IMG/VR virus record: IMGVR_UViG_2541047894_000002 | Span: 1-14,092 of that record | Length of the DNA: 14,092 nucleotides | Strand: one strand, 5' to 3' | From: a virus | Taxonomy: Duplodnaviria > Heunggongvirae > Uroviricota > Caudoviricetes | In this document: in pieces, positions 1 to 14,092 of the stretch | Layout: each line of letters starts with the position of its first letter | Numbering within the stretch: position 1 is the first letter of the stretch | Made by a program: the position numbers and the translations under genes | Notes under the pieces: model-generated | Seen by the model: only the letters and a program-made list of their open reading frames with translations | Told to the model about the DNA's origin: nothing | Databases searched by the model: none

Positions 1-396
1 GCAACACCAAAAGCGGTAAAGGCCGCGTATGACCTTGCTAACGGGAAATACACTGCACAGGACGCCACCACAGCGCGAAAAGGTCTTGTCCAGCTCAGTA
101 GCGTCACCAACAGCGATTCTGAAACGCTCGCCGCAACACCAAAAGCGGTTAAGGCAGCGTATGATCTTGCTAACGAAAAATATACCGCACAGGACGCCAC
201 CACAGCGCGAAAAGGCCTTGTTCAGCTCAGTAGCGCCACCAACAGCGATTCTGAAACGCTGGCGGCAACGCCAAAGGCGGTTAAGACAGCGTATGACCTT
301 GCTAACGGGAAATACACTGCACAGGATGCCACCACGGCGCGGAAAGGTCTTGTTCAGCTTAATAGTGCCATCAACAGCGATTCTGAAACGCTGGCT
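1..396 (+). repeat. Three tandem 132-bp (44-codon) near-identical repeats inside the tail fiber gene; a fourth copy starts at 397 and diverges after about 30 bp
   Basis: Repeat unit gcaacaccaaaagcggt...gattctgaaacgct(c/g)gc(c/g/t) restarts at 1, 133, 265 and 397 with only a few substitutions. Each encodes ATPKAVKAAYDLANGKYTAQDATTARKGLVQLSS(V/A)TNSDSETLA. Window begins inside the array, so more copies may lie upstream. Confidence 0.9.
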
Positions 397-1746
397 GCAA
401 CACCAAAAGCGGTGAAGTCTGCCTATGACAATGCTGAAAAACGTCTTCAGAAAGATCAGAACGGTGCGGATATTCCGGGAAAGGATACCTTCACGAAAAA
501 TATCGGTGCCTGTCGTGCTTATAGCGGTGCTTTGAGCACTGAATCCGGAAACTGGACAACCGCTCAGTTTATTGAATGGCTGGATTCCCGTGGTGCATTT
601 AATCATCCGTACTGGATGTGCAAAGGCTCCTGGTCATATGCAAATAACAAAATCATTACGGATACCGGATGTGGTGATATCCACCTGGCTGGTTGTGTCG
701 TCGAGGTCATGGGAACTAAATCTGCAATCACTATCCGAGTGACCACGCCGACAACATCAAGCGGTGGCGGTACAACCAGCGCGCAATTCACTTACATAAA
801 TCATGGGGACGGCTACTCCCCCGGCTGGCGTCGTGACTGGAATCGTCAGGGCGACGCAATGACCGGAACGATTAATCAGGATGGCGGAAGCCAGAATGCC
901 TATATGTCTACGGCCTTATGTTCAGGCACCAGAGGCGGCAAAAAATATCTCAGAAAGTTTCGTGGTGGAGAAGGAGACACTATCTGGCATGAAACAGTAC
1001 AGGCTGGGGTAATTCGCTGGGCGACAGGTAATACTGATGCTCAGGAAGAATTATCACTCAGCTCCGCTTATGGTCTCCGTTCTAGAGGTGAAATTACATC
1101 ACTCAGTGCTAATGGTCTGCGCATTGCTTATGGCAATTATGGATTCTTTATCAGGAATGATGGTGGCAGCACATATTTAATGCTGACGACCTCTGGCGAT
1201 AAATTTGGGACATGGAACGGTTTAAGGCCGCTGACTATCAATAACGCTAATGGCGGAGTGTCAATGGGGCATGGCCTGAGTGTTACTGGTGATATTGTCT
1301 CAAGTACCAAAGTACGTGCCGGTAGCGGGAAAAAACTCACGGTCAGCAGCAGTAATACATCCACGAAGGAAGCCGCATTCAATTTGTGGGGAAACTCAAG
1401 TCGCCCGGTGGTAGCTGAATTAGGTGATGATGCAGGCTGGCATTTTTACAGCCAAAGAAATACAGATAACAGCATCACTTTTGCTGTTAACGGGCAGGTA
1501 TCACCATCTAACTATGGCAACTTTGATTCACGTTATGTCCGGGATATTAGACTTGGTGGTGCGTCATCCTATAAACCAGCAAATAACGGGACAACATGGA
1601 CGCATCAGACTCCATCTGGTTGCGCGTATACCGGGATAATTGTTCAGGATACAGGCTCAAATTCTGCCGATAATATTGGTGGTGTTTATTACAGACCAAT
1701 TCAAAAAAATATTAATGGCACATGGTATAACGTATCGAGTGTTTGA
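1..1746 (+). CDS. Phage tail fiber protein (5' partial; frame 1 is open from base 1, ORF track shows only from the internal GTG at 412)
   Basis: Frame 1 has no stop from 1 to the TGA at 1744-1746. The repeat motif KGLVQLSSATNSDSETLAATPKAVK resembles the lambda Stf / phage tail fibre repeat. C-terminal 440 aa is Gly/Ser/Thr/Asn-rich as in receptor-binding domains. Followed by a tail fiber assembly gene with overlapping stop/start region. Confidence 0.85.
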   Translation, partial: ATPKAVKAAYDLANGKYTAQDATTARKGLVQLSSVTNSDSETLAATPKAVKAAYDLANEKYTAQDATTARKGLVQLSSATNSDSETLAATPKAVKTAYDLANGKYTAQDATTARKGLVQLNSAINSDSETLAATPKAVKSAYDNAEKRLQKDQNGADIPGKDTFTKNIGACRAYSGALSTESGNWTTAQFIEWLDSRGAFNHPYWMCKGSWSYANNKIITDTGCGDIHLAGCVVEVMGTKSAITIRVTTPTTSSGGGTTSAQFTYINHGDGYSPGWRRDWNRQGDAMTGTINQDGGSQNAYMSTALCSGTRGGKKYLRKFRGGEGDTIWHETVQAGVIRWATGNTDAQEELSLSSAYGLRSRGEITSLSANGLRIAYGNYGFFIRNDGGSTYLMLTTSGDKFGTWNGLRPLTINNANGGVSMGHGLSVTGDIVSSTKVRAGSGKKLTVSSSNTSTKEAAFNLWGNSSRPVVAELGDDAGWHFYSQRNTDNSITFAVNGQVSPSNYGNFDSRYVRDIRLGGASSYKPANNGTTWTHQTPSGCAYTGIIVQDTGSNSADNIGGVYYRPIQKNINGTWYNVSSV

Positions 1747-1748
1747 TT

Positions 1749-2282
1749 ATGATGCATTTAAAAAATATAAAACCGGGCAATCCAAAAACCAAAGAACAGT
1801 ACCTGTTAACTAAAAACTCCAGCGTTGTCTGGTTATTCGATGAAGATGGTAAAAACTGGTATGATGAACAAAAGAACTTTCAACCAGATACTATAAAGAT
1901 TGCATATGATGAAAATAATGTCATATGCGACGTGCAAATGGATGTAACTGCAATTTGCCCAGAAGGAAAAAGTGTTGTCGAGTTGCCCAATATCACAGCA
2001 AACCGACGTGCTGATATTTCAGGTAACTGGATGTTTAAGGATGGCGCAGTCATTAAACGTGTGTATACCGAAGAAGAGCAACGATTGCAGGCTGAAAACC
2101 AGAAACAAAGGTTATTACAACAGGCCAGAGAAAAAACGCAGTTCTGGCAAACCCAGCTTACTTTGGGGATTATCACTGATTCAGACAGACAGCAACTGAT
2201 GAACTGGATGCGATACGTGCAACAGATTGAAGCCACTGATACCTCTGAATTGCCCGTTACATTTCCGGAACAACCAGAATAA
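1749..2282 (+). CDS. tfa: Tail fiber assembly protein (Tfa / P2 gpG-like chaperone)
   Basis: N-terminus MMHLKNIKPGNPKTKEQY... and C-terminus ...TDTSELPVTFPEQPE match the conserved Tfa family pattern as recalled; sits immediately downstream of tail fiber gene. ORF track start at 1743 is a TTG; ATG at 1749 preferred. AT-rich relative to neighbours. Confidence 0.85.
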   Translation: MMHLKNIKPGNPKTKEQYLLTKNSSVVWLFDEDGKNWYDEQKNFQPDTIKIAYDENNVICDVQMDVTAICPEGKSVVELPNITANRRADISGNWMFKDGAVIKRVYTEEEQRLQAENQKQRLLQQAREKTQFWQTQLTLGIITDSDRQQLMNWMRYVQQIEATDTSELPVTFPEQPE

Positions 2283-2315
2283 ACGATAAGACCAGAATAC
2301 CGGGTCTTATCGTTT
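2281..2315. terminator. Putative bidirectional hairpin terminator between convergent tfa and U
   Basis: aaACGATAAGACC-agaataccg-GGTCTTATCGTtt: 11-13 bp perfect stem at 2283-2293 / 2303-2313, followed by tttctgtt on + strand; lies in the 41-bp gap between the tfa stop (2282) and U stop (2324). Confidence 0.45.
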
Positions 2316-2323
2316 CTGTTAAA

Positions 2324-2812
2324 TCAGAACAGCCCTTTAACTGAACTGGCCGCGTTGTTAATGGATGCTGTCACCTTATCTTTGAAGCCGGACAGCATAT
2401 CGCTGAACGATGAGGATTGCAGGCGCTCCCGCAAATCCTCATCACAGCGTTCAAGGGTCAGTGAAAATTCTATCTTTTTCGCCTTACCGTAGCGATCAAA
2501 CTCGGAACTGGTCGTATTCGTTCCGGTCAGGACATACATGCCGTAAATCTGCCCGACGCCATCAATAAGAGGCCAGGGGCGTCCTGTATACGCCTGCGTG
2601 GTCAGCAGCGACAGCGACACTTCGCCACCTGTAATTTCAGGATAAAGCACACCAGAAAGAACAATACGATCATCGCCTGCCCCGATATACTGCCAGCTTG
2701 CTGAACGGTTAACGCGTTCATTTTTCACATGTCGCCAGCTTTTATTTTGCTGTAACTGCTGATGCGGCAATGTGCGCAGCTCAAAAACAAACATGCCGTA
2801 GATCATCATCAT
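2324..2812 (-). CDS. U: Tail protein gpU-like
   Basis: Translation MMMIYGMFVFELRTLP...SWRH...GAGDD...LSGVLYPEITGG...WPLIDG...IYGMYV...TTSS resembles P2 gpU as recalled. ORF track start 2818; GAGGAG RBS abuts the first ATG, so the ATG at 2812 (8-nt spacer) is preferred. 6-nt gap from T stop (2825). Confidence 0.8.
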   Translation of the reverse strand: MMMIYGMFVFELRTLPHQQLQQNKSWRHVKNERVNRSASWQYIGAGDDRIVLSGVLYPEITGGEVSLSLLTTQAYTGRPWPLIDGVGQIYGMYVLTGTNTTSSEFDRYGKAKKIEFSLTLERCDEDLRERLQSSSFSDMLSGFKDKVTASINNAASSVKGLF

Positions 2813-2824
2813 GGCCATGACTCC

Positions 2825-5641
2825 TCAATCTTTATCGTAAAAACTGCCACGCCCGGCACGGGCGCGCCGTTCCATTTCTGCCCTGACCATTTCACCGACC
2901 AGTTTCGCTAGTTCGCGGGGATTCTGTGTAACAACGTTATGCAGATGAACATGAATTTCACCGCCAAATCCGGAGGCAACAGGTTCCCGGTTACGGGAAG
3001 TTGCAGGAACTGATGCCACTGGCGATCGTATGGCCTCCGCCACCGGGCGGGAGCTGGCCGCAACAACAGGGACCAGCGCCGGAGGCAGCGGAGCCGGAAC
3101 CACGGGTGTGATATTAATTGCGGTGGCAGGCTTACTGACCTGCGCAATCTTCCGCTCCTGCCACTCCCCACGAACAACAAGTGCGCGGGGCAGGTTCTTA
3201 AAGACAATATCGCCGGGGCCAATGCGTTTTTTCGTCTCATCAACCAGCTTACCTGTGTTATCAGCAATTTTGCTGAGTCTGCGTAGCGTCCCGGTATTGC
3301 TGTCTGTGAGCGGTTTATTGTCTTTGGGTTTATCACCTCCGGTGCCATTGCCATTTTCCACAGGCTTCGGCGGATTGATTTTCGCCAGGTCCCCCTGAAG
3401 CAAGGCAACCTTGTCCTGAAGAATGGCCGCACGCTGTGCGTCTTCGATTTTCTTTCTCGCCCTTTCCGCTTCATCCGGAAGAACACCGAGTTTTTCAAGT
3501 ATCCACGCCAGCGTATCCAGCAACATTTTTGCAGGCGTCAGAACAAGCTGTAACGCGCCACCAAGAACGTTACCGAATATCTCGCCAGCACTGGTACATT
3601 TATCCAGCGTTTCCTTGCTGGACTCCATCGGTGACAGCAGCGATTTGAACCAGTTAAACACCTGGCTGATCCCGCTTCCGATTGCGTCAAAAACAGGACC
3701 AAACTGTTCAAAGGTTTCGCGCAACGGGATCAGCCTTTCCATAATCCCGCTGAACACCCCGGCAAAAAATGCCCTGATGGGATCCCAGTATTTCGAGATA
3801 AGAACGGCAGCTCCGGCAAGCGCAGCCACGATAAGACCAACCGGACTGAATAGCGCCCCGATAGCACCTCCCAGCAAAGAAACGGAACCCGTCACCATTC
3901 CCCATAGTGCTGGCAGGACCCTGACAGCATTCATTGATCCGGTCAGGAGAGAAAAACCAAGACGCAGTTTTGCCAGCGGGCCAGCAAGCACACCAATAGC
4001 CAGCGACAACGAGCCAACCGTTGCAGTCATTGCCAGCAACGCACCGCCTGCTATCAGTAGCTGGCGCGTCAGTACCGGATGGGCCTGCGCCAGCGCCGTC
4101 ACCCTTGATACCACCCACGTGAGCCACTGCGTGACAGAACGCAGCGGACCGTCAATCAGATCTGCAATGCGGATGCGCAACCCTTCCCATGCACTGCCGA
4201 GTGATTTCAGATCGCCGTCAAGGTTGTTGGCCATAACCTTTGCTGTGCGTTCAGCCTCACCGCGCGCGCCTTCAAGTTCTTTTCTCAGTTTGGGTAAGGA
4301 ACCGTCACCCGCTGCATCAACGAGCGCCATAAACGATGTGAAAGCCTCTTCTCCGGCAATGTCCTTAAAGAACGATACCCGGTCAACTTCCCCGTATTTG
4401 CGGGTGGCTTTATAAAGGTCAGCCAGCACATCCTCCATCGGGCGCATTTTGCCGTTCGCGTCAGAGACTGCCACACCAAGCTCTTTCAGCGCCTCTGCTG
4501 CTGCCTTTGGCGGTGATGCCAGACGAGCCAGGCTGGCACGCATTGCCGTCCCGGCATCACTCCCTCTGATACCCATATTCGCCAGCACGCCCGCCATCGC
4601 TGCGGCCTGCTCCAGCGATATTCCCAGCTTACCCGCCACCGGACCTGCATATTTCATGGTTTCACCCAGTGCGCGAAGGTCAGTGTTGGTACGGGTAAAC
4701 GCTGCGGTGAGTGTGTCACCGACCCGGTCCATCTGGTCAGCAGAAAGGCCGAACTGCGTCAGGATATTTGAGCCAATATCTGCCGTCTCGCCGAGATCCA
4801 TACCGCCAGCCGTTGCCATGCTCAGCACGCTGGGAAGCGCAGCCTGAATGGCCTGCGGAGTGAAGCCAGCCATTGCAAGAAATGCCTGTCCACTGGCGGC
4901 ATCGCCTGCGGTAAACTGCGTTTCAGAGCCAAGTTTTAACGCCTGCTCACGCAGCGCCTTAAACTGCGGGCTGTTCTGGTCGATTCGCGTCAGTGCCTGA
5001 ACGCGGGACATCTCTTTGCCGAACCCGATCGCAGGCTGCAAAAAACGCCCCGCAGCATAGCCGCCCGCCGCTGCCGCACCAATTGCCAGCGCACCACCTG
5101 TTTTCAGTTTTCCCGCAGTTTCCTGCGCGCGCGAATACCGCTCACGCGCCCGCGTTACACGCGCAAGTGCCTGCCGTTCGCGTTCAAGCTGGTTGTTGTA
5201 CTGTTCGGTGCGTCTGATGGCCTGCTGGATGGTGTTATCGCTGCCTGTCAGGGAAATGCCGTGGCGTTTCAGCTCTCCGCCAAGCTCCCGCATTTTCTGA
5301 ATTTCCCGTGTGCGCGATTCATTCAGGCGTTCAAGCCGGGTGCTTAACTGCTGCATCAGCTTTTGTTGCTTTTCGCTGAGCACTGTACCCGTGCGTTGTA
5401 ACTGATTAAGGGCGTTAAGCTGGCGTCGTGCTTTCACGATACCCGCATCCGCTTTACTGACAGCGTCGCGGGCGCGCTCAAATGAACGCGCCTGACGCTC
5501 GAGATTTTTGATCGCCCCCTGCGTTCGCTGGATGGAGTCACCAAACTGCCCCATCAGGCGGCGGGCGTTTTCGGCAGGCCGGGTCAGCCTGTCAACGGCG
5601 CTGAAAGCGACCCGGATATCAAGAGTCTTCATTGTCTGCAT
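2825..5641 (-). CDS. T: Tail tape measure protein (gpT-like), about 939 aa
   Basis: Large Ala/Gly/Leu-rich protein with coiled-coil N-terminal part and hydrophobic glycine-rich central segments, downstream of the E/E' chaperone pair as in P2-type tail modules. Start ambiguous: ATG at 5641 (MQTMKTL...) or 5632; ORF track reports upstream extension to 5668. Start overlaps end of E'. Confidence 0.85.
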   Translation of the reverse strand: MQTMKTLDIRVAFSAVDRLTRPAENARRLMGQFGDSIQRTQGAIKNLERQARSFERARDAVSKADAGIVKARRQLNALNQLQRTGTVLSEKQQKLMQQLSTRLERLNESRTREIQKMRELGGELKRHGISLTGSDNTIQQAIRRTEQYNNQLERERQALARVTRARERYSRAQETAGKLKTGGALAIGAAAAGGYAAGRFLQPAIGFGKEMSRVQALTRIDQNSPQFKALREQALKLGSETQFTAGDAASGQAFLAMAGFTPQAIQAALPSVLSMATAGGMDLGETADIGSNILTQFGLSADQMDRVGDTLTAAFTRTNTDLRALGETMKYAGPVAGKLGISLEQAAAMAGVLANMGIRGSDAGTAMRASLARLASPPKAAAEALKELGVAVSDANGKMRPMEDVLADLYKATRKYGEVDRVSFFKDIAGEEAFTSFMALVDAAGDGSLPKLRKELEGARGEAERTAKVMANNLDGDLKSLGSAWEGLRIRIADLIDGPLRSVTQWLTWVVSRVTALAQAHPVLTRQLLIAGGALLAMTATVGSLSLAIGVLAGPLAKLRLGFSLLTGSMNAVRVLPALWGMVTGSVSLLGGAIGALFSPVGLIVAALAGAAVLISKYWDPIRAFFAGVFSGIMERLIPLRETFEQFGPVFDAIGSGISQVFNWFKSLLSPMESSKETLDKCTSAGEIFGNVLGGALQLVLTPAKMLLDTLAWILEKLGVLPDEAERARKKIEDAQRAAILQDKVALLQGDLAKINPPKPVENGNGTGGDKPKDNKPLTDSNTGTLRRLSKIADNTGKLVDETKKRIGPGDIVFKNLPRALVVRGEWQERKIAQVSKPATAINITPVVPAPLPPALVPVVAASSRPVAEAIRSPVASVPATSRNREPVASGFGGEIHVHLHNVVTQNPRELAKLVGEMVRAEMERRARAGRGSFYDKD

Positions 5642-6148
5642 TCCCGCTGCGAAGTGCCGCCCGCTCACGCCAGCTAACCACTTCGCCGGGCGTCATCATG
5701 AAGATTTCGGCGGGCGACCAGTTAAAAATAACGGCAATATCTGCCACAAAGTCTTCTATGTGCTCAAAGCACACAACCGTGATCAGGCTTCCGTCGCCTG
5801 TTCGTTCTTCCCGCCAGAGTCCGCACCGCTCAAAAAATTTACGGCAACCACACATAACTGAATAAAGTCACGGGATGCCATTTTTTTGATCGTCACTTCA
5901 TCCAGTCGCGGTGATGTCACGCGTGACAGCAGCGTAAACATGGATTCCGCTTTCAGATTCAGCACATCAGACAGCGACAAATCTCGCAGAGATCCAGCCT
6001 GCTCAATAGCTCCGGTGATCTCCACATACGTGATTTTTTCGCCGCCTCGCTCAATTGGTTGGGTAAGTTTTACGCCACGCTCACTGGTTTCTTTCACAGT
6101 GTCAGCAACGACCGTGTTTTCGGTATCGATGTTTTTCGTCTCTTTCAT
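5619..6148 (-). CDS. E+E': Tail assembly chaperone E+E' fusion produced by programmed -1 ribosomal frameshift (predicted about 176 aa)
   Basis: ORF 5619..5855 lies in the -1 frame relative to E (start coordinates 6148 mod 3 = 1, 5855 mod 3 = 2). Slippery heptamer T_TTT_TTG occurs in E in the correct register (0-frame codons aaT TTT TTG at - strand 5837..5831). After the slip the reading continues ...NFF-ERCGLWREERTGDGSLITVVCFEH... to the TGA at 5621-5619. Confidence 0.6.
5783..6148 (-). CDS. E: Tail assembly chaperone gpE-like (121 aa, 0-frame product)
   Basis: Located between tail tube FII and tape measure T as in P2; AAGGAG RBS 8 nt upstream of ATG at 6148; contains the frameshift heptamer near its 3' end. 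Confidence 0.8.
   Translation of the reverse strand: MKETKNIDTENTVVADTVKETSERGVKLTQPIERGGEKITYVEITGAIEQAGSLRDLSLSDVLNLKAESMFTLLSRVTSPRLDEVTIKKMASRDFIQLCVVAVNFLSGADSGGKNEQATEA
5831..5837 (-). other. Programmed -1 frameshift slippery site TTTTTTG (P2 E/E' type)
   Basis: + strand caaaaaa at 5831-5837 = - strand TTTTTTG; in-frame as T_TTT_TTG relative to the E reading frame; -1 frame open downstream for 70 codons. Confidence 0.6.
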
Positions 6149-6202
6149 CAGGAAACTCCTTTCAGTCAGAGGCGACGCACTGCGCCGCCTGCATATTACT
6201 TA

Positions 6203-6715
6203 TCAGCCAAGCCCGAGCGCAGAACGGATGCGATCGGGCACAATGTCCTTGCCGTCCTTCCGGTAAATGAAGTTCAGCAGGTCAATCTCCCACAACGGGC
6301 GATCGTTAACACTCAGCTTGTAGTAGGTGTTTTTAATGGCGTAAGTGTGTGATGTGGCTTCGCCCTGTTTGGCTTCCCCCATATCAATTTCCGTCACACG
6401 TCCGCGCATTTCGACTTCATACAGGTCGCTTTCTGCATCGGTGTAATATTCACCCGCAAAACGCAGCAGCGTGCCGTCAATCGTGCCGCCATACTTAAGG
6501 AACAGCTCACGAACTGCGCCCCCCATGACAAAGCTCGCATCAAGCGCGGAGTCGTCCAGACCGAGATCAATACTTACCGCACCCATCATGCCACCACCCC
6601 GGTAGCTGTCGGTTTTGCGCGTCAGCTTAGGCAGAGTGACGGACGTCACCTTACCCACTTCGTTTTCACCATCCACAAACAGCGTAAAAAAGCGAAGATG
6701 TTTTGGCACAGCCAT
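6203..6715 (-). CDS. FII: Tail tube protein (P2 FII-like)
   Basis: MAVPKHLRFFTLFVDG...VTLPKLTRKTDSYRGGGMMG...DLGLDD...RFAGEY...VEMRGR..EID.GE.KQGE matches the P2 FII pattern as recalled; GGGAGG RBS; start overlaps FI stop (TGATG). Confidence 0.85.
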   Translation of the reverse strand: MAVPKHLRFFTLFVDGENEVGKVTSVTLPKLTRKTDSYRGGGMMGAVSIDLGLDDSALDASFVMGGAVRELFLKYGGTIDGTLLRFAGEYYTDAESDLYEVEMRGRVTEIDMGEAKQGEATSHTYAIKNTYYKLSVNDRPLWEIDLLNFIYRKDGKDIVPDRIRSALGLG

Positions 6716-7899
6716 CAGGCACCTCCCAGCACCGCAAATGCGGGTTCAAAGTATTCATCAGTAAACGTCTGGTAAAGCTCCATGTCTTCCAGTGGCGGAA
6801 CGGGCGTATATTTGTAGCGAATACGCACACGTCCCTGACGTAAATCCGTGGTGCTGTTATCCACCACGTCATACCAGCACTCCGCGCCAATCAGTTTCCC
6901 GGCAGTAACCAGTGAATCCAGTTTTGCCCTGATGGCACTGATAACATCCTTCACGTTCGCAGGCGTCAGTGGACTGTCGATGGTTTCAAACTGCGCTTCC
7001 GCAATTGAATCAGCCAGCACCTGTGCGGTTCGGGTATACACCTCAAAGATGTAGGCGTTCGTTTCCGGTGTGCGGTTGCCCCAGAAGCGGAACCCGTTGC
7101 GACGAATAATGGTCGTGATTTCTTTGTTGTTAAGGCTGTTGGCATCACTGTCTTCGGCCTGCAACGACCAGAAAACATGCCTCGACATCCCCAGCACATT
7201 TTTAACCGGAACGTTGGACAGCGATTTGTGCCATCCCTGCTCATGGTCAATGTACGCACGAAGGCCGCACGCATAGGCAGGCGCGGGGAACGTTTCGTTT
7301 TTGCCACTTTTCGGGTTGTAGGCGATGAAGTCCGGCCATAAGAGCATCACCTCACGTTCGTTGAATTTCTGGCGGTAGGTAATCGCCGCAGCCATCGTGT
7401 TACAGCCGTGACATGAGGCATACACAAACGCGCGCAGTTTACCTGCAATCACGCACAGGGATTTTGTTACAGCCTCCGTGTCCAGCTCCGGCGCGGCCAG
7501 AATACGCGGACGGTATCCGATGCTTTCATCCTGCTCTGCAACAAGCAGCGCATACATCCCCGTATAGCTGCCGTCATCCTCAGAACCACCGATAACCAGT
7601 TGATCCTGCGTCTTTCCGTCTTCTTCTTTGTGTTCAGCCACGCGAACGACGATCACCTTTGTGCTCACCTGGTCTGCGATGGCCTTAAGCGCACGATAAA
7701 GCGTCCCCGTTGTCCCGCATTTTCCCAGCACGTCATTGACGCGGGTCAGCAGTGTGGGCTTGTTCAGCGGGAACAGCTTCGCGTCCGCATCATCCGCCGT
7801 TGCCACGATACCGATAACGCTGGAATCAACATCGTTAATCGCTGTTACCAGGTCGGTATTTTCCGTAACACGGGCACCATGAAAACGAGTTTCACTCAT
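6715..7899 (-). CDS. FI: Contractile tail sheath protein (P2 FI-like)
   Basis: 394 aa; motifs ...FPLNKP...LRAFVYASCHGC...WPDF...EQGWHKSLSNV...IRRNGFRFWGNRT...NYTRTAQV...RYKYTPVPPLE... match P2 FI sheath as recalled; AAGGGG RBS 8 nt upstream of ATG at 7899. Confidence 0.9.
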   Translation of the reverse strand: MSETRFHGARVTENTDLVTAINDVDSSVIGIVATADDADAKLFPLNKPTLLTRVNDVLGKCGTTGTLYRALKAIADQVSTKVIVVRVAEHKEEDGKTQDQLVIGGSEDDGSYTGMYALLVAEQDESIGYRPRILAAPELDTEAVTKSLCVIAGKLRAFVYASCHGCNTMAAAITYRQKFNEREVMLLWPDFIAYNPKSGKNETFPAPAYACGLRAYIDHEQGWHKSLSNVPVKNVLGMSRHVFWSLQAEDSDANSLNNKEITTIIRRNGFRFWGNRTPETNAYIFEVYTRTAQVLADSIAEAQFETIDSPLTPANVKDVISAIRAKLDSLVTAGKLIGAECWYDVVDNSTTDLRQGRVRIRYKYTPVPPLEDMELYQTFTDEYFEPAFAVLGGA

Positions 7900-8056
7900 A
7901 GCTTCAGCCCCTTGTATCCGTTAAATGATTCGGCAACAATCATCACCCACCACGCGCGTAATCTCACCCCTGCGCCGTTCTCCCGCCACGGCGACAACAA
8001 AAAGCAGTAACCCCCTACGCACGCACATGCGACCATGCCGCACAGGGAGGGAACAG
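7900..8056. promoter_or_regulatory. Divergent intergenic region between FI (-) and D (+); presumed promoters for both
   Basis: 157-bp non-coding gap flanked by divergently oriented start codons with RBSs on each side. No exact TGT-N12-ACA (Ogr/late-promoter type) dyad found by eye; only one TGT in the region (7913-7915). Confidence 0.3.
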
Positions 8057-9166
8057 ATGACCGATACCACCATGCAATTGCTCAGTCAGAGCACAGACCC
8101 CGTGAAAATGCCGGATTTTGATATTCTCGCGGAGGGGGAAACACTGTCCGGCGTGGCAGAGCGCCTGATGAGCCTGTCACTGACCGACAACCGGGGATTT
8201 GAAGCGGACCAGCTCACCATCACGCTGGATGATGCGGATGGTCAGTTGCAGCTACCGCCACGGGGCGTGCGCCTGACGGTTCTCATTGGCTGGAAAGGAG
8301 AACCGCTGACAGAAAAAGGCACTTACATTGTTGATGAAATCGCTCACGAAGGACCGCCGGACAGGCTGACGGTTTCAGCCAGAAGCGCAGATTTTCGGGA
8401 TGAATTTAACGTTAAACGTGAGGTGTCCTGGCATGATGTGACCGTTGAGCGCGTGGTATCCGCCATCGCTCATCGGTATGGTCTGAAACCGCAAATCAGC
8501 GAAATGCTGATGGATATAGAAATCGACCACGCCGACCAGACCGAAGAAAGCGACATGTCCTTTCTTACGCGCATGGCGGAAATGCTGGGCGCAATCACCA
8601 CAGTAAAAAGCGGTAATCTGTTATTCATCATGCCCGGTGGTGGCGTGAACGCACAGGGCCAGCCGTTGCCATCGTTCGCCATCACACGCAGCAGCGGCGA
8701 TCGCCATCAGTTCCGCATTGCTGACCGCGAGGCGTATACGGGTGTACGCGCCTACTGGCTTGATCTTAATTACGGGAAAAAGAAAAAAGTCAGCGTGAAA
8801 CGCCGCAAACCGCAAAAACCCAAAAAGGAGAAAAGCAGCAGCCGTGAAGGTGATTATATGGAAGGCGCGGAAGGCAACGTGTTTGTGTTACGCAAGACTT
8901 ATCAGAACGAGCAGGCAGCAAGACGCGCAGCGGCGGCAAAGTGGCAGCAGCTACAACGCGGAGCCGCAGCGTTCTCCATCACACTGGCACGTGGACGCGC
9001 AGAACTCTACCCCGAAATGCATGGCACGGTAACAGGATTTAAAAGCGAAATTGATAATCAGGACTGGATTATTGCAAAAGCCGAGCACACCATTGATAAC
9101 AGCGGCTTTACCACGCAGCTTGAACTTGAGGCAAAAATCCCGGAATGGATAGCAGAAACAGCTTGA
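8057..9166 (+). CDS. D: Tail protein D (P2 gpD / phage late control D family)
   Basis: 369 aa from ATG at 8057 with GGAGGG RBS 5 nt upstream; motifs LSLSLTDNRGFEADQL.I.LDDADGQ, SARSADFR, SWHD.T, FLTR.AE, ITRS.GDRH.F.IADR.AYTGV.A.W, lysine-rich KKKKVSVKRRKPQKPKKEK linker, REGDYMEG..NVF, FSI.LA.GRA, NSGFTT.LELE match gpD as recalled. ORF-track N-terminal extension from 7925 rejected. Confidence 0.85.
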   Translation: MTDTTMQLLSQSTDPVKMPDFDILAEGETLSGVAERLMSLSLTDNRGFEADQLTITLDDADGQLQLPPRGVRLTVLIGWKGEPLTEKGTYIVDEIAHEGPPDRLTVSARSADFRDEFNVKREVSWHDVTVERVVSAIAHRYGLKPQISEMLMDIEIDHADQTEESDMSFLTRMAEMLGAITTVKSGNLLFIMPGGGVNAQGQPLPSFAITRSSGDRHQFRIADREAYTGVRAYWLDLNYGKKKKVSVKRRKPQKPKKEKSSSREGDYMEGAEGNVFVLRKTYQNEQAARRAAAAKWQQLQRGAAAFSITLARGRAELYPEMHGTVTGFKSEIDNQDWIIAKAEHTIDNSGFTTQLELEAKIPEWIAETA

Positions 9167-9211
9167 TCAGCTAAGATGTATTGCACGCCTACCCCCTTCA
9201 GTTTTCTGACT

Positions 9212-9235
9212 GTCCGCTCTGTGCCAAGAGCGGAC
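9212..9235 (+). terminator. Hairpin downstream of D (weak candidate terminator / island boundary element)
   Basis: GTCCGCTCT-gtgcca-AGAGCGGAC, 9-bp perfect stem, followed by atatataattt (AT-rich, not a clean U-tract). Lies at the GC-content transition into the AT-rich island. Confidence 0.25.
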
Positions 9236-9334
9236 ATATATAATTTCGTACTGTATCAATCGAAAGGAATCAGCTCCTTCCTATCTCAAATATGAGACAC
9301 TGCTTATAGCACCACTGGAAATTGGTTAAACATC

Positions 9335-11374
9335 TCAACTTTGCCAATCATCAGCTATCTGTTGCCAATTAACTTTCCGAGGTTCTTTTGTAGTGCTAGA
9401 CCACACATCCCAAAAATCAGGATCATCAGATTGCGGTCGTTGTTTTTCAGTAAGCTCTTTCATTCTAACTAAAACAGGAAGTTCTGAAGCCCATCCAAGT
9501 AAAATAGCATGCCTAGATGGTAACGATGGCAGCTCTCTCAACAGCCCTCTCATATTATCTGGAACAAGTCTATGTACTTGCTCTTGATCTCTATCATTAC
9601 TAATCCTGTGCAACAAAAAAGTATTACATTGAGATAAAACCGTCGGAGATAGCTCTGATGGCCTTTGGGAAGAAACAACAAGGCCTAGCCCAAACTTTCT
9701 TCCTTCCCGTGCAATCTTTTCAAACACCTTGCAACATATATCAGAGACTGACTGAGTTTCACTATCTTCCTTGTAACGTTTAATAAACGTATGCGCTTCT
9801 TCTGCAACTAAAACTGTTGGTAGCGGCCTTCCATTTAATCTTCGATAACGTTGTAGTGCTTCAAAAGCCACCCTAGAAATTACAGCTGTTACCAAATGAA
9901 TTATTTCATTTGGTACTAGAGATAAATCTATAACAGTTATAGATCCTTGTTCATTTTTACCGAGAAAAGTGTCTAACCAATTAGTTAAACTTATAGGCTT
10001 TACAGAATCATTGGTTACTGCACTAATACGAGTGTCACCTAGCATTGTTCGAATACGAGTCAAAAGAAACTCAACGAATTGTTCTGTACCTGTTTCTTGA
10101 GCCAGAGCTTCGAGATATGCGACAAAATCATCGCCTTTAAAACGCATAGGCGCATCTTCGCTTTTTGGAAGAAGTTCTTGTTCATCTCCCCCTAGAGCTG
10201 TATATGCATCTCTGAATCCATTAATCAACAACTCAATCTCGGAAACAACAGGCTTTGCTGGCCAAGAAGATCCACTTCGTGAAGAAAGATACGTATTTAT
10301 TGTGTTTATTAGCTTATCGAGCGATTTATCAACAATTCTCTCGTTTAAGATAGAAATACTATCTCTCCAAGAACCCAAAGTTTCAACCAAACCTTTAGCA
10401 GATCCACTATTCACATATATCTGACCTTGACTTGCCTGCTGTCTCATAGATACAAGAAGGATACCGCAAAAGCGTTTGGCTTGAATTTTCACATCATCTT
10501 CTGATAGAAGATTATTCCTCATTGCCCTCAAAGCACGACGTAGTAAAGGAAGTTGCACCTTTGAACTTGCTTGAGTGAAAGCAGCCCACTCAGAACTATT
10601 CCATAACCATGAAGGTACTTTAAGATCCATCTCTCCGACATCGATGTTAGCCTCTACACGTAATAGTTTACCCTTATATCTTGATTCTGGCCCTAAAGCT
10701 CTACTATATTCTCCGTTCGGATCAAGTATTATAAATCGAGCATTTGGAGATTTTCCCTGTTGTAAAACAGCATCAAGAGACCATTGAATTAAGCCGGCCA
10801 CCGAACATGATTTACCACTACCCGTATTACCTAAAACAGCTATATGTCGTCCGAAAAGTCTATCGGGGTCTACTTTTATTTCAGCATTGTTAGCTAGGGG
10901 GCTATCCCCTATTTTTACCCTTCTATTATCACCTGATTCAATTATTGATTGTAATTGTCGGTCAGTAGGCAAAAGCACAGAGTCACCAACCGAAGGGAAA
11001 GCATCAGTTCCTCTCGTGAACCTGAAACCTTCGTTTTTTCTATCAACTCTCAATGTACCAACTGGATTGATACTAAGCTTTTTAAGTGGGAAAGGAAGGT
11101 CTATCAACCCAAAATCTTGTAAGCCTCTTCTTTTGGGATATGGCGAGTTTTCTATTGCAATCCACTCAACTTGCCCAACAAGAAACCCGTCATCACTACG
11201 GATTAAAATATAACTATTTATTCTAGGAAAATTACGAGGCGCCCCACCTTGAAGTGATACTGAATCAGGAGAATCAATCTCTAAAGACACCCTAATTTCA
11301 TTAGGTGATACAAACTCAACAGTTCCAATTCTTAGTTGTTCTATTTTTTCTATTGGTAAATAACTCATTGTCAT
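9335..11374 (-). CDS. HerA-like (FtsK/HerA superfamily) ATPase, partner of SIR2 protein
   Basis: Walker A HIAVLGNTGSGKS; Walker B-like PTVLVAEEAHTF; GLGLVVSSQRPSEL (arginine-finger region typical of HerA/DUF87); N-terminal beta-rich region (GTVEFVSPNEIRVSLEID) consistent with a HAS-barrel. ATG at 11374 overlaps upstream stop (ATGA); GAGGT abuts that ATG, so ATG at 11368 (6-nt spacer) may be the real start. Confidence 0.8.
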   Translation of the reverse strand: MTMSYLPIEKIEQLRIGTVEFVSPNEIRVSLEIDSPDSVSLQGGAPRNFPRINSYILIRSDDGFLVGQVEWIAIENSPYPKRRGLQDFGLIDLPFPLKKLSINPVGTLRVDRKNEGFRFTRGTDAFPSVGDSVLLPTDRQLQSIIESGDNRRVKIGDSPLANNAEIKVDPDRLFGRHIAVLGNTGSGKSCSVAGLIQWSLDAVLQQGKSPNARFIILDPNGEYSRALGPESRYKGKLLRVEANIDVGEMDLKVPSWLWNSSEWAAFTQASSKVQLPLLRRALRAMRNNLLSEDDVKIQAKRFCGILLVSMRQQASQGQIYVNSGSAKGLVETLGSWRDSISILNERIVDKSLDKLINTINTYLSSRSGSSWPAKPVVSEIELLINGFRDAYTALGGDEQELLPKSEDAPMRFKGDDFVAYLEALAQETGTEQFVEFLLTRIRTMLGDTRISAVTNDSVKPISLTNWLDTFLGKNEQGSITVIDLSLVPNEIIHLVTAVISRVAFEALQRYRRLNGRPLPTVLVAEEAHTFIKRYKEDSETQSVSDICCKVFEKIAREGRKFGLGLVVSSQRPSELSPTVLSQCNTFLLHRISNDRDQEQVHRLVPDNMRGLLRELPSLPSRHAILLGWASELPVLVRMKELTEKQRPQSDDPDFWDVWSSTTKEPRKVNWQQIADDWQS

Positions 11375-12783
11375 ACCTCAACTTCGGCTGAATTACCTAA
11401 CTCTTTGAACTGCATAAAGCCTCTTTGTTTGAGCAACTCTGCCATCTTGATTGATGCTTTATCAATAGCTGGTTTAGGTAAATAGTTATCAACTAAAGTT
11501 TTGAAGTCTCCTAAATGATCTCCCATCAAAAGGGTAATCTGTGCTTTTCTTCCACTATTACTAATGAAACGCATAATTCTGCCAAGTGGATCGCCAAAGG
11601 CTATTATTACTATATGAGTGGAAGGTACCGTAAGCATGTCTTCAATTACTCTATTGATATGCTCATCACCAAAGCTATAACCATAAGTGACTAATGTGCT
11701 ATTTGGACGGCTAGTTGCTGCTGCCAGATCTCGAAATAGCTCAACATAAGGATACTCGGCTGTTTCTCTGTCTTTTACTGAATTAGGGTAAATCATCAGT
11801 TTTTCATAGCCATTGCTTTGATGACCTTCGGCTTCCAAAAACGGCTCAACAGAACGTGCTCCAAAGGGTAAGCCAAAGCGCCTAATCGCATTATTTTGTT
11901 CATGCCAATCAAGGGAACCATGAAGTTTAGTAAAACGTGCCACGCCCTCCAAGTATCTTGGTTCACCACGGATTCCAGGAGGATTATAATGATAATCAAC
12001 TTCTAATCTTGAGGATCGAAATACTGGAGCAATACTTCCTACAAAGCGATCAATAAGTCTTAAACCAGCAAGCTCAGCACCCACTTCAATAATACGGTCA
12101 TAATTTGTTGTAAAGATATGTAGCCTATCGCGAGTGGCAGTTCTACTTGCAAAGCTCATCAAAAAACTAACTAGATAGTTGAAAGTTTCCTCTTTCCGGG
12201 CTGGTTCAGCAGTTTTGATTAAATATTCTCCTTTAATTATAGATTTAGAAAACTCCCCCAAGCATCTAGAAAGCTCGCCTTTGAGCTCGCCCAAGTCTGC
12301 TTTTAAGTTTCTATAAGCAGAATAAGGAGGTGGCGGATTTTCTGGTTGAGGAGTATTTAACACCGTTAAAATTTCGAGACCTTTAATAAGTTCATTGATA
12401 GTTCTAATTTGATCTTCTATATTTCCTCTATCGCGACCTGCAGCTTTTGCAGCCTGAGTGGAAAATTCATCTATTTCGCTTTTACATACTTTTAAATCAT
12501 TAATCCACCCCATCCCTACTGGAGATAAACCTGTAGCTGATTTTTGAATAGCCGAGCTTAAGCCTGCACCGATTAATAAATTTAAATGCTCTGATTGGAA
12601 GAGAGCTGTTAGCCAGGGCTCAATATTTTGGCGCAATTTCTCAATTGATATTTCTGCCCCCTGTTCTCCCCATACACAGTTCTTCGAGAGGATAAAAGGA
12701 TGAGAATCAGCATGCTCGCCAGAATTAGATGATAGATCAATAATTTCTGATATACTGCCAACTTTTATATGTTGAATACTCAT
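11371..12783 (-). CDS. SIR2-family (SIR2_2 / DUF4020-like) protein, predicted NAD+-consuming effector
   Basis: Motifs in order: LNLLIGAGLS (Gly-rich NAD-binding loop), IFTTNYDRIIE (TTNYD), KLHGSLDW (catalytic-His region), YGYSFGDEHINRVIEDM. ORF track start at 12843 is TTG; ATG at 12783 (MSIQHIKVG...) preferred but weak SD, so start is uncertain (12783-12843). Stop overlaps HerA start. Confidence 0.75.
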   Translation of the reverse strand: MSIQHIKVGSISEIIDLSSNSGEHADSHPFILSKNCVWGEQGAEISIEKLRQNIEPWLTALFQSEHLNLLIGAGLSSAIQKSATGLSPVGMGWINDLKVCKSEIDEFSTQAAKAAGRDRGNIEDQIRTINELIKGLEILTVLNTPQPENPPPPYSAYRNLKADLGELKGELSRCLGEFSKSIIKGEYLIKTAEPARKEETFNYLVSFLMSFASRTATRDRLHIFTTNYDRIIEVGAELAGLRLIDRFVGSIAPVFRSSRLEVDYHYNPPGIRGEPRYLEGVARFTKLHGSLDWHEQNNAIRRFGLPFGARSVEPFLEAEGHQSNGYEKLMIYPNSVKDRETAEYPYVELFRDLAAATSRPNSTLVTYGYSFGDEHINRVIEDMLTVPSTHIVIIAFGDPLGRIMRFISNSGRKAQITLLMGDHLGDFKTLVDNYLPKPAIDKASIKMAELLKQRGFMQFKELGNSAEVEV

Positions 12784-13207
12784 AAATGCACTTCTTTTAT
12801 TTGTGTTAAAAAACATACTTTTGTAGAGGCAAACGAGTGCCAAGAGTATGAAACTTAGCGATTAAGTTCGAATCTTACACCTCCCAAAGCCTCTGAGAAT
12901 TATCAACCTAACCCAAAGGAACTCAATCAGCGTTTTATTTTAGCACGACTAAATAACTAGTAGATAGCGTCAAAGACAAACCGGGGAGATAAAAACTTAC
13001 AACACTGCCACCAGTAAAATCATCTACATACCAACAAGTTGCCTTCAATCACGTAGAATAATCCTACTAGTGCATAGTCAATCTCGACTACTTACTCAGT
13101 GAAAATTCAACTGCAAACTTCTGGTTTTTACTCAAAGCAAGCAGTTAGTTGGAATCAGTATTAGTACAACTTAGAATAATAGAAACACCACGTTAAGGGA
13201 GGTCGCT

Positions 13208-13468
13208 ATGTTCCGTTGTCCACTTTGTGGCGCGTCTGCCCGTATCCGCACCAGTCGTCCGGAAAATGACTCAAACACCGTGCGGCAAAAGTATTACCAG
13301 TGTAATAACCTGGAATGCGGCGTATGCTTCTCAACACTGGAAGCTTTTCATAAGTTCACATCAAAACACACCTCAGAAGTTCATTCTTCAGAAGACATAC
13401 CGTGGCAGGCTCTGCCAGCTTCACACAGGGGGAACAATCAGATGAGTTTGCCCTTATCTCAGAATTAA
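13208..13468 (+). CDS. ogr: Ogr/Delta-family zinc-finger late transcription activator
   Basis: MFRCPLCGASARIRTSR...YYQCNNLECGVCF: Cys-X2-Cys ... Cys-X4-Cys arrangement and N-terminal MF.CPLC....A..RTSR pattern of P2 Ogr as recalled; strong RBS AAGGGAGG 5 nt upstream; 86 aa. Confidence 0.85.
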   Translation: MFRCPLCGASARIRTSRPENDSNTVRQKYYQCNNLECGVCFSTLEAFHKFTSKHTSEVHSSEDIPWQALPASHRGNNQMSLPLSQN

Positions 13469-13528
13469 CGAGCAGAATTGCCGGAGTAACAAAAAAGCGA
13501 TAGATTACGCGCGGGTGCCTTTCGGCTT

Positions 13529-13792
13529 ATGGTCGGAGGGAATACCCGAAGGCCAGATGTGGAAAGGCCCCGGAAAACATCTCTGTTTAACCGAGGCCCT
13601 AACCGCATTACCTTGACAAGTGAAAGGTTAGCGCCTCTCCTGAAAAGGAGCAAGTGCTATGTCGCAAAAATCGCTTACGGCCATCACGTTCTGCGTGACG
13701 GCAATCCTCATCATCTGGATGCTGCACGGTTCGCTGTGCGAAATACGGATGAGCTTCTGGGGAGCGGAGTTTGCGGCGTTCTTACAGTGTAA
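13529..13792 (+). CDS. mok-like overlapping reading frame covering the hok-like toxin ORF (true start uncertain)
   Basis: ORF in a different frame (start 13529 mod 3 = 2, hok-like 13659 mod 3 = 0) spanning almost the whole toxin ORF and ending 7 nt before its stop, as in hok/mok/sok loci. No independent sequence support for translation. Confidence 0.3.
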   Translation: MVGGNTRRPDVERPRKTSLFNRGPNRITLTSERLAPLLKRSKCYVAKIAYGHHVLRDGNPHHLDAARFAVRNTDELLGSGVCGVLTV

Positions 13793-13799
13793 GCAGTAA
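13659..13799 (+). CDS. Hok/Gef-family type I toxin (46 aa small membrane peptide)
   Basis: atg tcg caa aaa ... cag taa encodes MSQKSLTAITFCVTAILIIWMLHGSLCEIRMSFWGAEFAAFLQCKQ: N-terminal hydrophobic helix followed by the SLCEIR motif and AAF, characteristic of Hok/Gef peptides. RBS AAAAGGAG 8 nt upstream. Below the ORF-track size cutoff. Confidence 0.65.
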   Translation: MSQKSLTAITFCVTAILIIWMLHGSLCEIRMSFWGAEFAAFLQCKQ

Positions 13800-13888
13800 G
13801 GAAACCGCGACGGGGGAGCAATCCCCCGTCACTCGGTTGCCAGGGTAAGGTCGATAAGGCACCCTATCTCACAGACATGAACAACAAA

Positions 13889-13921
13889 CCCGCAGCGTAA
13901 AAACTGCGGGTTTTCTTTTTT
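13889..13921 (+). terminator. Rho-independent terminator (likely 3' end of the hok-like mRNA)
   Basis: CCCGCAG-cgtaaaaa-CTGCGGG stem-loop followed by TTTTCTTTTTT. Preceded at 13809-13830 by a second hairpin GACGGGGGA-gcaa-TCCCCCGTC with a GNRA loop. Confidence 0.55.
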
Positions 13922-14065
13922 GGTATCCTCACCGATTGAAACAGTGATCAGACTATAAGACAAAGCCCACAATGTAGCGGGCTTACTCCCCTCTCCCTCC
14001 ACTGAATGTGGACACATAGTGGAACAAAGAGAGATAAAACATTATAAATCAATCTGTTATTGAAA

Positions 14066-14092
14066 TAAAAAAGGCCGCAGAGCGGCCTTTTT
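14066..14092. terminator. Bidirectional rho-independent terminator at window edge
   Basis: aaaaaAGGCCGC-aga-GCGGCCTttttt: GC-rich 8-bp stem flanked by A-run and T-run; truncated by window end, associated gene unknown. Confidence 0.45.

Follow-up and report, generated by a model that had tools for sequence, protein, structure and literature searches.

Does the short open reading frame (ORF) that follows the late-gene activator ogr near the right-hand end of a P2-family prophage belong to a complete type I toxin-antitoxin locus and, if so, is that locus the property of the phage or of the bacterium in which the phage resides? The question is raised by a stretch of 14,092 nucleotides (nt) from a virus of the Caudoviricetes, positions 1 to 14,092 of IMG/VR record IMGVR_UViG_2541047894_000002 (the window in what follows), and by an earlier reading made from the letters alone (the sequence-only reading), which had noticed a Hok/Gef-like peptide encoded between ogr and the end of the window. 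As detailed below, the observation is confirmed and the core of its interpretation is supported: very probably, a P88-like prophage (Xuanwuvirus, P2 family), inserted at the ihfA terminator, bears here a type I toxin-antitoxin locus of the hok/sok type as accessory cargo, in the interval from ogr to the right attachment site (attR). Elements of this kind are known and have been annotated before, and a peptide identical to that of the window has been published. What goes beyond the descriptions found is only that this Hok cluster, as judged from an alignment of homologs, appears to lack a conserved mok frame.

A Hok-family toxin gene carried by P88-like phages

The ORF described by the sequence-only reading, 46 codons preceded by a strong Shine-Dalgarno (SD) sequence, is present on the plus strand at 13659-13799, with the GGAG ribosome site at 13647-13650, 8 nt ahead of the ATG, and encodes the peptide MSQKSLTAITFCVTAILIIWMLHGSLCEIRMSFWGAEFAAFLQCKQ. 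Its proposed identity as a Hok/Gef toxin with an N-terminal membrane stretch stands up to profile searches. Pfam HOK_GEF (PF01848) matches residues 7-44 with 29.9 bits, above the gathering score of 22 (E 4.1e-7), a hydrophobic stretch spans residues 6-22, and PHROG 251, a family labelled 'MokW-like host killing', matches the peptide over its full length (E 1.3e-22). The best NCBIfam model is that of HokA (NF007290, E 2.2e-8) and not the general one for Hok, but at 34 bits the score falls far short of the equivalog cutoff of 89 bits. In a large protein collection 67 relatives were found, in Escherichia, Shigella, Salmonella and Klebsiella, and all the named ones are Hok. Residues C27, E28 and C44, which correspond to the published Hok features C31/E32 and position 48, are invariant in an alignment of 24 sequences. 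The two cysteines among them, thought to form a disulfide, are both directly encoded and need no TadA editing, as described for HokA of E. coli K-12 (bioRxiv 10.1101/2025.08.07.668861), from which the peptide nevertheless differs in length (46 versus 50 residues) and in its cluster in the same preprint (72 versus 93).

The short ORF is also conserved in DNA, a point on which the sequence-only reading had made its proposal depend. Of 77 distinct homologous DNA loci, 73 keep it at a length of 45-47 residues, and the synonymous share of codon differences from the window amounts to 34% in the hok frame versus 15% and 19% in the two remaining frames. On these sequence grounds, the 46-codon ORF encodes a genuine member of the Hok family of membrane toxins.

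The description of the locus as unannotated holds for the ORF track available to the sequence-only reading and for nothing wider, since RefSeq names the 100% identical locus WP_000078916.1, 'Hok/Gef family protein'. Among 5426 complete genomes of E. coli, 1555 (~29%) have a match to the locus, with up to 7 places per genome. The identical peptide, with no difference at any residue, is also construct LRP137 (72_1621, Hok cluster 72) in the toxicity test set of Escalera-Maurer et al. (bioRxiv 10.1101/2025.08.07.668861). Upon arabinose induction, 42 of the 45 Hok homologs in that set were toxic, and 72_1621 is not among the non-toxic ones (19_179, 60_1482 and 69_1540); mok, Sok and the mRNA structure of cluster 72 were not analysed there. 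With the gene annotated in RefSeq, common in E. coli and catalogued as a peptide, the biological gain is small. The value for annotation lies in the confirmation of a complete hok/sok-type module inside a prophage, beside attR, of a kind that short-ORF tracks overlook.

The position directly downstream of ogr, also claimed beforehand, is borne out by the gene at 13208-13468 (plus strand), which scores 52.6 bits with Pfam Ogr_Delta (cutoff 26.3) and is labelled Ogr/Delta-like zinc finger protein in RefSeq. The sequence-only reading had left room for a second possibility, a host chromosomal hok locus lying beside the integration site and marking the prophage boundary. This would be in keeping with the several hok loci held by E. 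coli chromosomes, and 2002 of the 2019 matching places in complete E. coli genomes are indeed chromosomal. It is contradicted, however, by the ends of the prophage. E. coli HSP60 has a 100% identical region in the ogr-ihfA interval, and the opposite end of its prophage lies beside btuC, together with the integrase. The 21-mer AAAAAAGGCCGCAGAGCGGCC is present at both junctions, on the btuC/integrase side (L003:7730-7750) and at 14067-14087 of the window, where it constitutes the attR core, coincides with the ihfA terminator and sets the right boundary of the prophage. The hok terminator thus ends ~150 bp inside the boundary, with the core repeat beyond it. Moreover, independent phage genome records carry the locus at 94-98% identity (P88, Chuche, PhiR44_2, P884B11, 500465-2 and Citrobacter Shae_phiSM); gp52 of P88 is 97.8% identical to the window peptide and occupies the same position after ogr at the right end of a P2-like genome. 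Finally, ogr is directly upstream of hok in 34 of the 35 homologs with at least 90% identity, whatever the flanking DNA. A host locus is therefore highly improbable, and this is cargo of P88-like (Xuanwuvirus, P2-family) phages, not a host gene. Integration between btuC and ihfA regenerates the ihfA terminator at attR.

Predicted folding of the hok mRNA and a putative Sok-like antisense RNA

A hok promoter is predicted at 13478-13506 (plus strand), with a -35 element TTGCCG (13478-13483), a 17-nt spacer and a -10 element TAGATT (13501-13506) whose form TAnAnT is kept in most homologs. It puts +1 at G13513, which is precisely where a match to the Rfam family RF01794 starts (plus strand, 13513-13672, model positions 1-157, 57.3 bits, E 8.4e-12). 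From there, a full-length mRNA of ~408 nt (13513-13920) would extend to an intrinsic terminator detected by a terminator scan at 13886-13921, in which a 10-bp stem (hairpin 13886-13913) is followed by a T-run. RF01794 is entitled 'sok antitoxin (CssrC)', yet in the window as in an R1-like locus (L136:686-857, 92.6 bits) its match lies on the hok-sense strand and extends from the mRNA 5' end as far as the AUG of hok. This family models the hok leader, not the Sok RNA, and the strand of a match should not be taken as the antitoxin strand. Weak Rfam matches in the region to STnc540, Thr_leader, CsrC and others are below threshold and were dismissed; the partial STnc540 match at the end of the window arises because the ihfA terminator hairpin is common to both.

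The sequence-only reading had noted a structured 3' region and had proposed a search for complementary elements at the two ends of the mRNA, and both ideas proved well founded. The predicted 408-nt RNA has a minimum free energy (MFE) of -181.1 kcal/mol (z -8.1 versus shuffles) with its 5' and 3' ends paired. In this fold, a tac-like 5' element GGGUGCCUUUCGGCUU (13513-13528) forms a helix of 16 pairs with an fbi-like element (13848-13864), the core of which, AAGGCACCC (13856-13864), is perfectly complementary over 9 bp to GGGUGCCUU at the mRNA 5' end. A ucb-like element GGAAAGGCCCC (13559-13572) pairs with an SD-like sequence, GAGGCCCUAAC (13593-13604), referred to here as the GAGG element. A hairpin at 13629-13659, to which a dcb-like element, GGUUAGCGCCUC (13626-13637), contributes the 5' half, hides the ribosome site and the AUG of hok. 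The 3' region contains a hairpin at 13807-13832 with a GNRA loop (GCAA), and then the terminator. Upon removal of the 3' end, the RNA 13513-13834 is predicted to refold, tac pairing with 13559-13571 and GAGGCCCUAAC with GGUUAGCGCCUC.

Conservation of these structures was assessed by projecting the MFE pairs onto a MAFFT alignment of the 77 homologs, with partners slid by 1-3 columns as controls. Overall, 85.8% of the pair cells are canonical versus 39-43% in the slid controls. The tac/fbi helix is 87.7% canonical, the tac core GGGTGCC is nearly invariant in the alignment and the fbi motif GCACCC is kept in 11 of 12 diverse loci. Changes on both sides of a pair were seen at several places, including 13622-13834 (GC 47, AU 17) and 13623-13833 (AU 33, GC 25). 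They affect 6 of the 10 pairs of the GCAA-loop hairpin (90.2% canonical) and 8 pairs of the terminator stem (80.2% canonical). The two helices of the 3'-trimmed form are still better kept, tac/ucb at 98.1% (slid controls 50-78%) and GAGG/dcb, 13593-13604 with 13626-13637, at 94.0% (slid controls 27-55%), figures that reflect mostly invariance and, near dcb, are partly forced by the pattern with which the loci were collected.

A Sok-like antisense RNA is predicted to be encoded on the minus strand within the hok leader, in the very stretch where the sequence-only reading had suggested searching for one. Its putative promoter (13653 to 13625) consists of a -35 element TTGCTC (13653 to 13648), which overlaps the hok ribosome site, a 17-nt spacer and a -10 element TAACCT (13630 to 13625). 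The -10 is found in 77 of 77 loci, a figure partly forced by the search pattern, and is also invariant in 12 independently collected loci; the -35 reads TTGnnn in 73 of the 77, and the spacer is 17 nt long in 70 loci and 18 nt in 7. The RNA would be ~56 nt long, starting near 13617-13619, a start inferred from the -10, and ending at 13562. It would fold into a hairpin, GGCCUCGG...CCGGGGCC (13598 to 13566; -26.8 kcal/mol, z -3.75), followed by UUUCC. Conservation of the leader is lowest at 13607-13616 (0.69), beneath the predicted Sok 5' tail, and such variability may reflect divergence of Sok specificity among co-resident hok loci. More broadly, 13604-13616 is the least conserved stretch of the leader and shows indels of 1-3 nt among close relatives.

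Several observations count against this description of the two RNAs. Neither promoter was picked up by a consensus promoter scan with a threshold of 9/12; both were placed by hand and by conservation, that of hok scores 8/12 and TTGCTC-17-TAACCT is weak by consensus. The RF01794 score is slightly below the gathering score of 59. Most helices are kept through invariance or one-sided wobble changes, which is neither proof nor disproof of structure, and, since the IMG/VR loci were gathered with a search pattern, conservation at 13625-13639 is partly forced.

The overlapping frame and the question of mok

The order of the predicted elements is that of hok/sok (parB) from plasmid R1, namely promoter, tac, ucb, GAGG, dcb with the antisense -10, hok ribosome site under the antisense -35, hok, stable hairpin, fbi and terminator. 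The same Rfam leader model gives a match in both loci, just under its gathering score in the window, the SLCEIR motif is found in both toxins and, in the R1-like locus, a GGCGGGC...GCCCGCC hairpin stands at the position of the 13807-13832 hairpin of the window. The tac/ucb and GAGG/dcb helices are counterparts of the tac/ucb and SD/dcb stems of R1, and the tac/fbi fold-back known from R1 hok mRNA is the closure predicted for the window RNA. The two loci differ in their carrier (a prophage versus a plasmid) and in their toxins, which are distantly related and count 46 versus 52 residues. They seem to differ also as to mok: its translation is required in R1, whereas no conserved mok start or frame was found in the cluster to which the window belongs.

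That a mok-like frame overlaps hok, as the sequence-only reading had pointed out, is correct as far as the window is concerned: a frame of 87 codons at 13529-13792 (plus strand) ends 7 nt before the hok stop. It is its conservation in relatives that is missing. A canonical hok/mok/sok organization, in which this frame, or a shorter version of it starting at TTG 13613, would be a functional mok whose translation, blocked by Sok, is needed to open the hok ribosome site as in R1, has several points in its favour. The frame is open in the window, its closest relatives retain it together with the TTG at -46, the GAGG element occupies the position of the R1 mok ribosome site, and R1 cannot do without translation of mok as far as the hok ribosome site. 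However, this scenario is difficult to reconcile with what is seen in the other homologs. Of 54 parsed homologs, only 7 have the mok-like frame open, with a start codon and with its end 7 nt ahead of the stop of hok. With a more flexible parser, 51 of the 74 loci with an intact hok contain no ORF starting with ATG, GTG or TTG, in either of the other frames, that runs from upstream of the hok ribosome site across the hok start. Most of them have a TAA in the mok-like frame at -46 to -44 with no later start codon, and the leaders of close relatives differ by indels of 1-3 nt between GAGGCCCTAAC and CAAGTG, which shift the frame; the window leader belongs to a variant seen in a minority of loci, CGCATTACCTTGAC, in which the overlapping frame remains open. 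The ATG at 13557 is well conserved, but the ORF it opens has its stops scattered and is reduced to 'M-stop' in 11 loci. The synonymous fraction of the mok-like frame is the 15% given above, against 34% for hok. Furthermore, there is no start codon within 10 nt after the GAGG element in the window, and none is conserved there in the alignment, whereas the R1-like locus has an ATG 6 nt after it.

Neither did profile searches or a wider choice of frames and start codons yield a mok. The mok-like frame has no match in Pfam, PHROG or NCBIfam. Among the +1 and +2 frames with ATG, GTG or TTG starts, no substitute leader ORF is conserved by position, frame or stop, and none came out of a 12-locus subset when CTG, ATT, ATC and ATA starts were considered. 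A 3-codon GTG ORF at 13620, checked by eye in the alignment, is not conserved either. The mok-like frame is probably fortuitous, a canonical mok-dependent locus seems improbable and, from the alignments at hand, this Hok cluster looks mok-less.

How such a locus might work can be outlined by combining the fold predictions with what is known of R1. The promoter, as predicted from its sequence, would start the ~408-nt mRNA at G13513, and this RNA would code for the 46-residue membrane toxin but be made in a closed form, with its tac-like 5' end paired with 13848-13864 and the hok ribosome site and AUG hidden in the 13629-13659 hairpin. Slow trimming from the 3' end, by analogy with R1, would remove the fbi-like element and stop at the stable hairpin 13807-13832, which would probably protect the 3' end of the mRNA in its trimmed, translatable form. 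The 5' end could then re-pair with 13559-13571, and the freed GAGGCCCUAAC (13593-13604) would pair with GGUUAGCGCCUC (13626-13637), thereby opening the hairpin over the hok start. As long as the prophage is present, the short-lived ~56-nt antisense RNA would pair with the leader at 13562-13619 and block this switch, probably triggering RNase III cleavage, and the toxin would stay off. Unlike in R1, no conserved mok frame would be available for translation coupling. This leads to a tentative model, to which we would give somewhat less than an even chance: the cluster of 46-residue Hok proteins, encoded by P2-like and Shiga toxin (Stx) prophages as well as by some plasmids, may represent a form of hok/sok that naturally does without mok. 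In it, the GAGG element would be kept only as an RNA switch, 3' trimming would activate hok directly, and Sok would repress by sequestering this switch and not through blockage of a leader ORF. It counts against the model that a mok-independent switch has been derived from MFE predictions alone. If the model is true, these loci differ from R1 in the way Sok controls their toxin, which would bear on the prediction of type I toxin loci and on the activation of their prophage copies.

Possible roles and neighbouring features

What such a locus would do for a P88-like phage can be approached by analogy with its better studied relatives. Penalising prophage loss (addiction) appears to be the most likely role, a preference that is itself tentative and falls short of an even chance. 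It is ranked first because a locked, stable mRNA reservoir combined with a short antisense RNA is the architecture that gives post-segregational killing in R1. Two reports speak against it: the introduction of a recent preprint states that earlier-studied chromosomal hok loci are unable to mediate post-segregational killing (bioRxiv 10.1101/2025.08.07.668861), and the only tested prophage hok locus, hokW-sokW, aided phage release rather than prophage stability (PMC8621323). Help with lysis after induction and abortion of infection by other phages are live alternatives to addiction.

In the first of these, which we regard as rather unlikely, induction would lead to loss of Sok and production of Hok, and the resulting damage to the inner membrane would increase the release of progeny, as for hokW-sokW of Sp5. 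There, phage release after mitomycin C is up ~two-fold and sokW RNA is lost in a RecA-dependent manner (PMC8621323). That hok comes right after the late activator gene ogr, and that neither the sequence nor a terminator scan shows a convincing terminator separating the two, would fit such a role. However, hokW encodes a different Hok (51 residues) at another locus of a lambdoid phage, P2-like phages are not covered by the hokW-sokW measurements and, if the R1 model applies, slow activation dependent on trimming would suit the loss of an element better than a timed lysis. Somewhat less likely still is abortive-infection defence, in which an invading phage would stop host transcription, the unstable Sok would decay and Hok would kill the cell before the cycle of the invader is completed. 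R1 hok/sok has been reported, as cited in PMC8621323, to lower the plating of T4 by 42% and to shrink its plaques by ~85%, and the prophage has a SIR2-HerA defence pair at a distance of 0.8 kb from the locus. Nevertheless, the R1 effect on T4 is modest and was obtained with a high-copy plasmid, no PADLOC model matches the peptide, P88 itself has no neighbouring defence cargo, and hok shows no genome-wide enrichment around defence systems (12% observed versus 9.4% expected). Addiction is hence retained as the preferred, if tentative, role.

The comparison with hokW-sokW of the Stx prophage Sp5 (and 933W) calls for some precision about names. Both loci are prophage-borne hok/sok systems, hokW-sokW having been established experimentally as a toxin-antitoxin pair affecting phage release (PMC8621323), and both toxins carry the same PHROG label, 'MokW-like host killing'. 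The term 'MokW-like' is also used in phage records, and the possibility that the locus is the characterised hokW-sokW was considered and rejected, as hokW is a separate locus for a peptide of 51 residues in the same Stx phages (933W 58463-58615, with an annotated mokW). In addition, 933W (45660-45797; L135:2501-2638) and VT2-Sakai (Sp5; AP000363.1 44701-44838) have a second hok, for 46 residues, just downstream of lom. Its product shows 74% amino acid identity to the window peptide, and this gene is distinct from hokW and unannotated in those records.

The defence pair mentioned above consists of SIR2 (PADLOC PDLC04079, E 2.5e-155) and a HerA ATPase (PDLC04098, E 3.1e-252), encoded on the minus strand at 9335-12843 of the window, between gpD and ogr. 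In phage P88, D, ogr and hok follow each other without an insert, and 14 of the 35 close hok homologs have ogr with no gpD within 1.5 kb. This suggests that P88-like phages have, at the D/ogr junction, a variable site for cargo. Upstream, a plus-strand ORF of 413 codons at 7925-9166 encodes a gpD-like tail protein, of which RefSeq annotates the last 267 codons only (L001:10887-11687), together with a small pseudogene on the opposite strand; the mismatch could be a start-site or annotation discrepancy.

Elsewhere, two hok loci of this cluster stand in tandem beside serS in E. coli STEC1012 (L012:289-429 and 763-903). Loci with 98%, 98% and 72% amino acid identity to the window peptide were also found in records titled, respectively, Planococcaceae metagenome-assembled genome (L004), Vagococcus sp. 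WN89Y (L005) and Xanthomonas pisi (L008). The Vagococcus record contains the E. coli attachment core as well, and the three records are probably cases of enterobacterial contamination or mislabelling.

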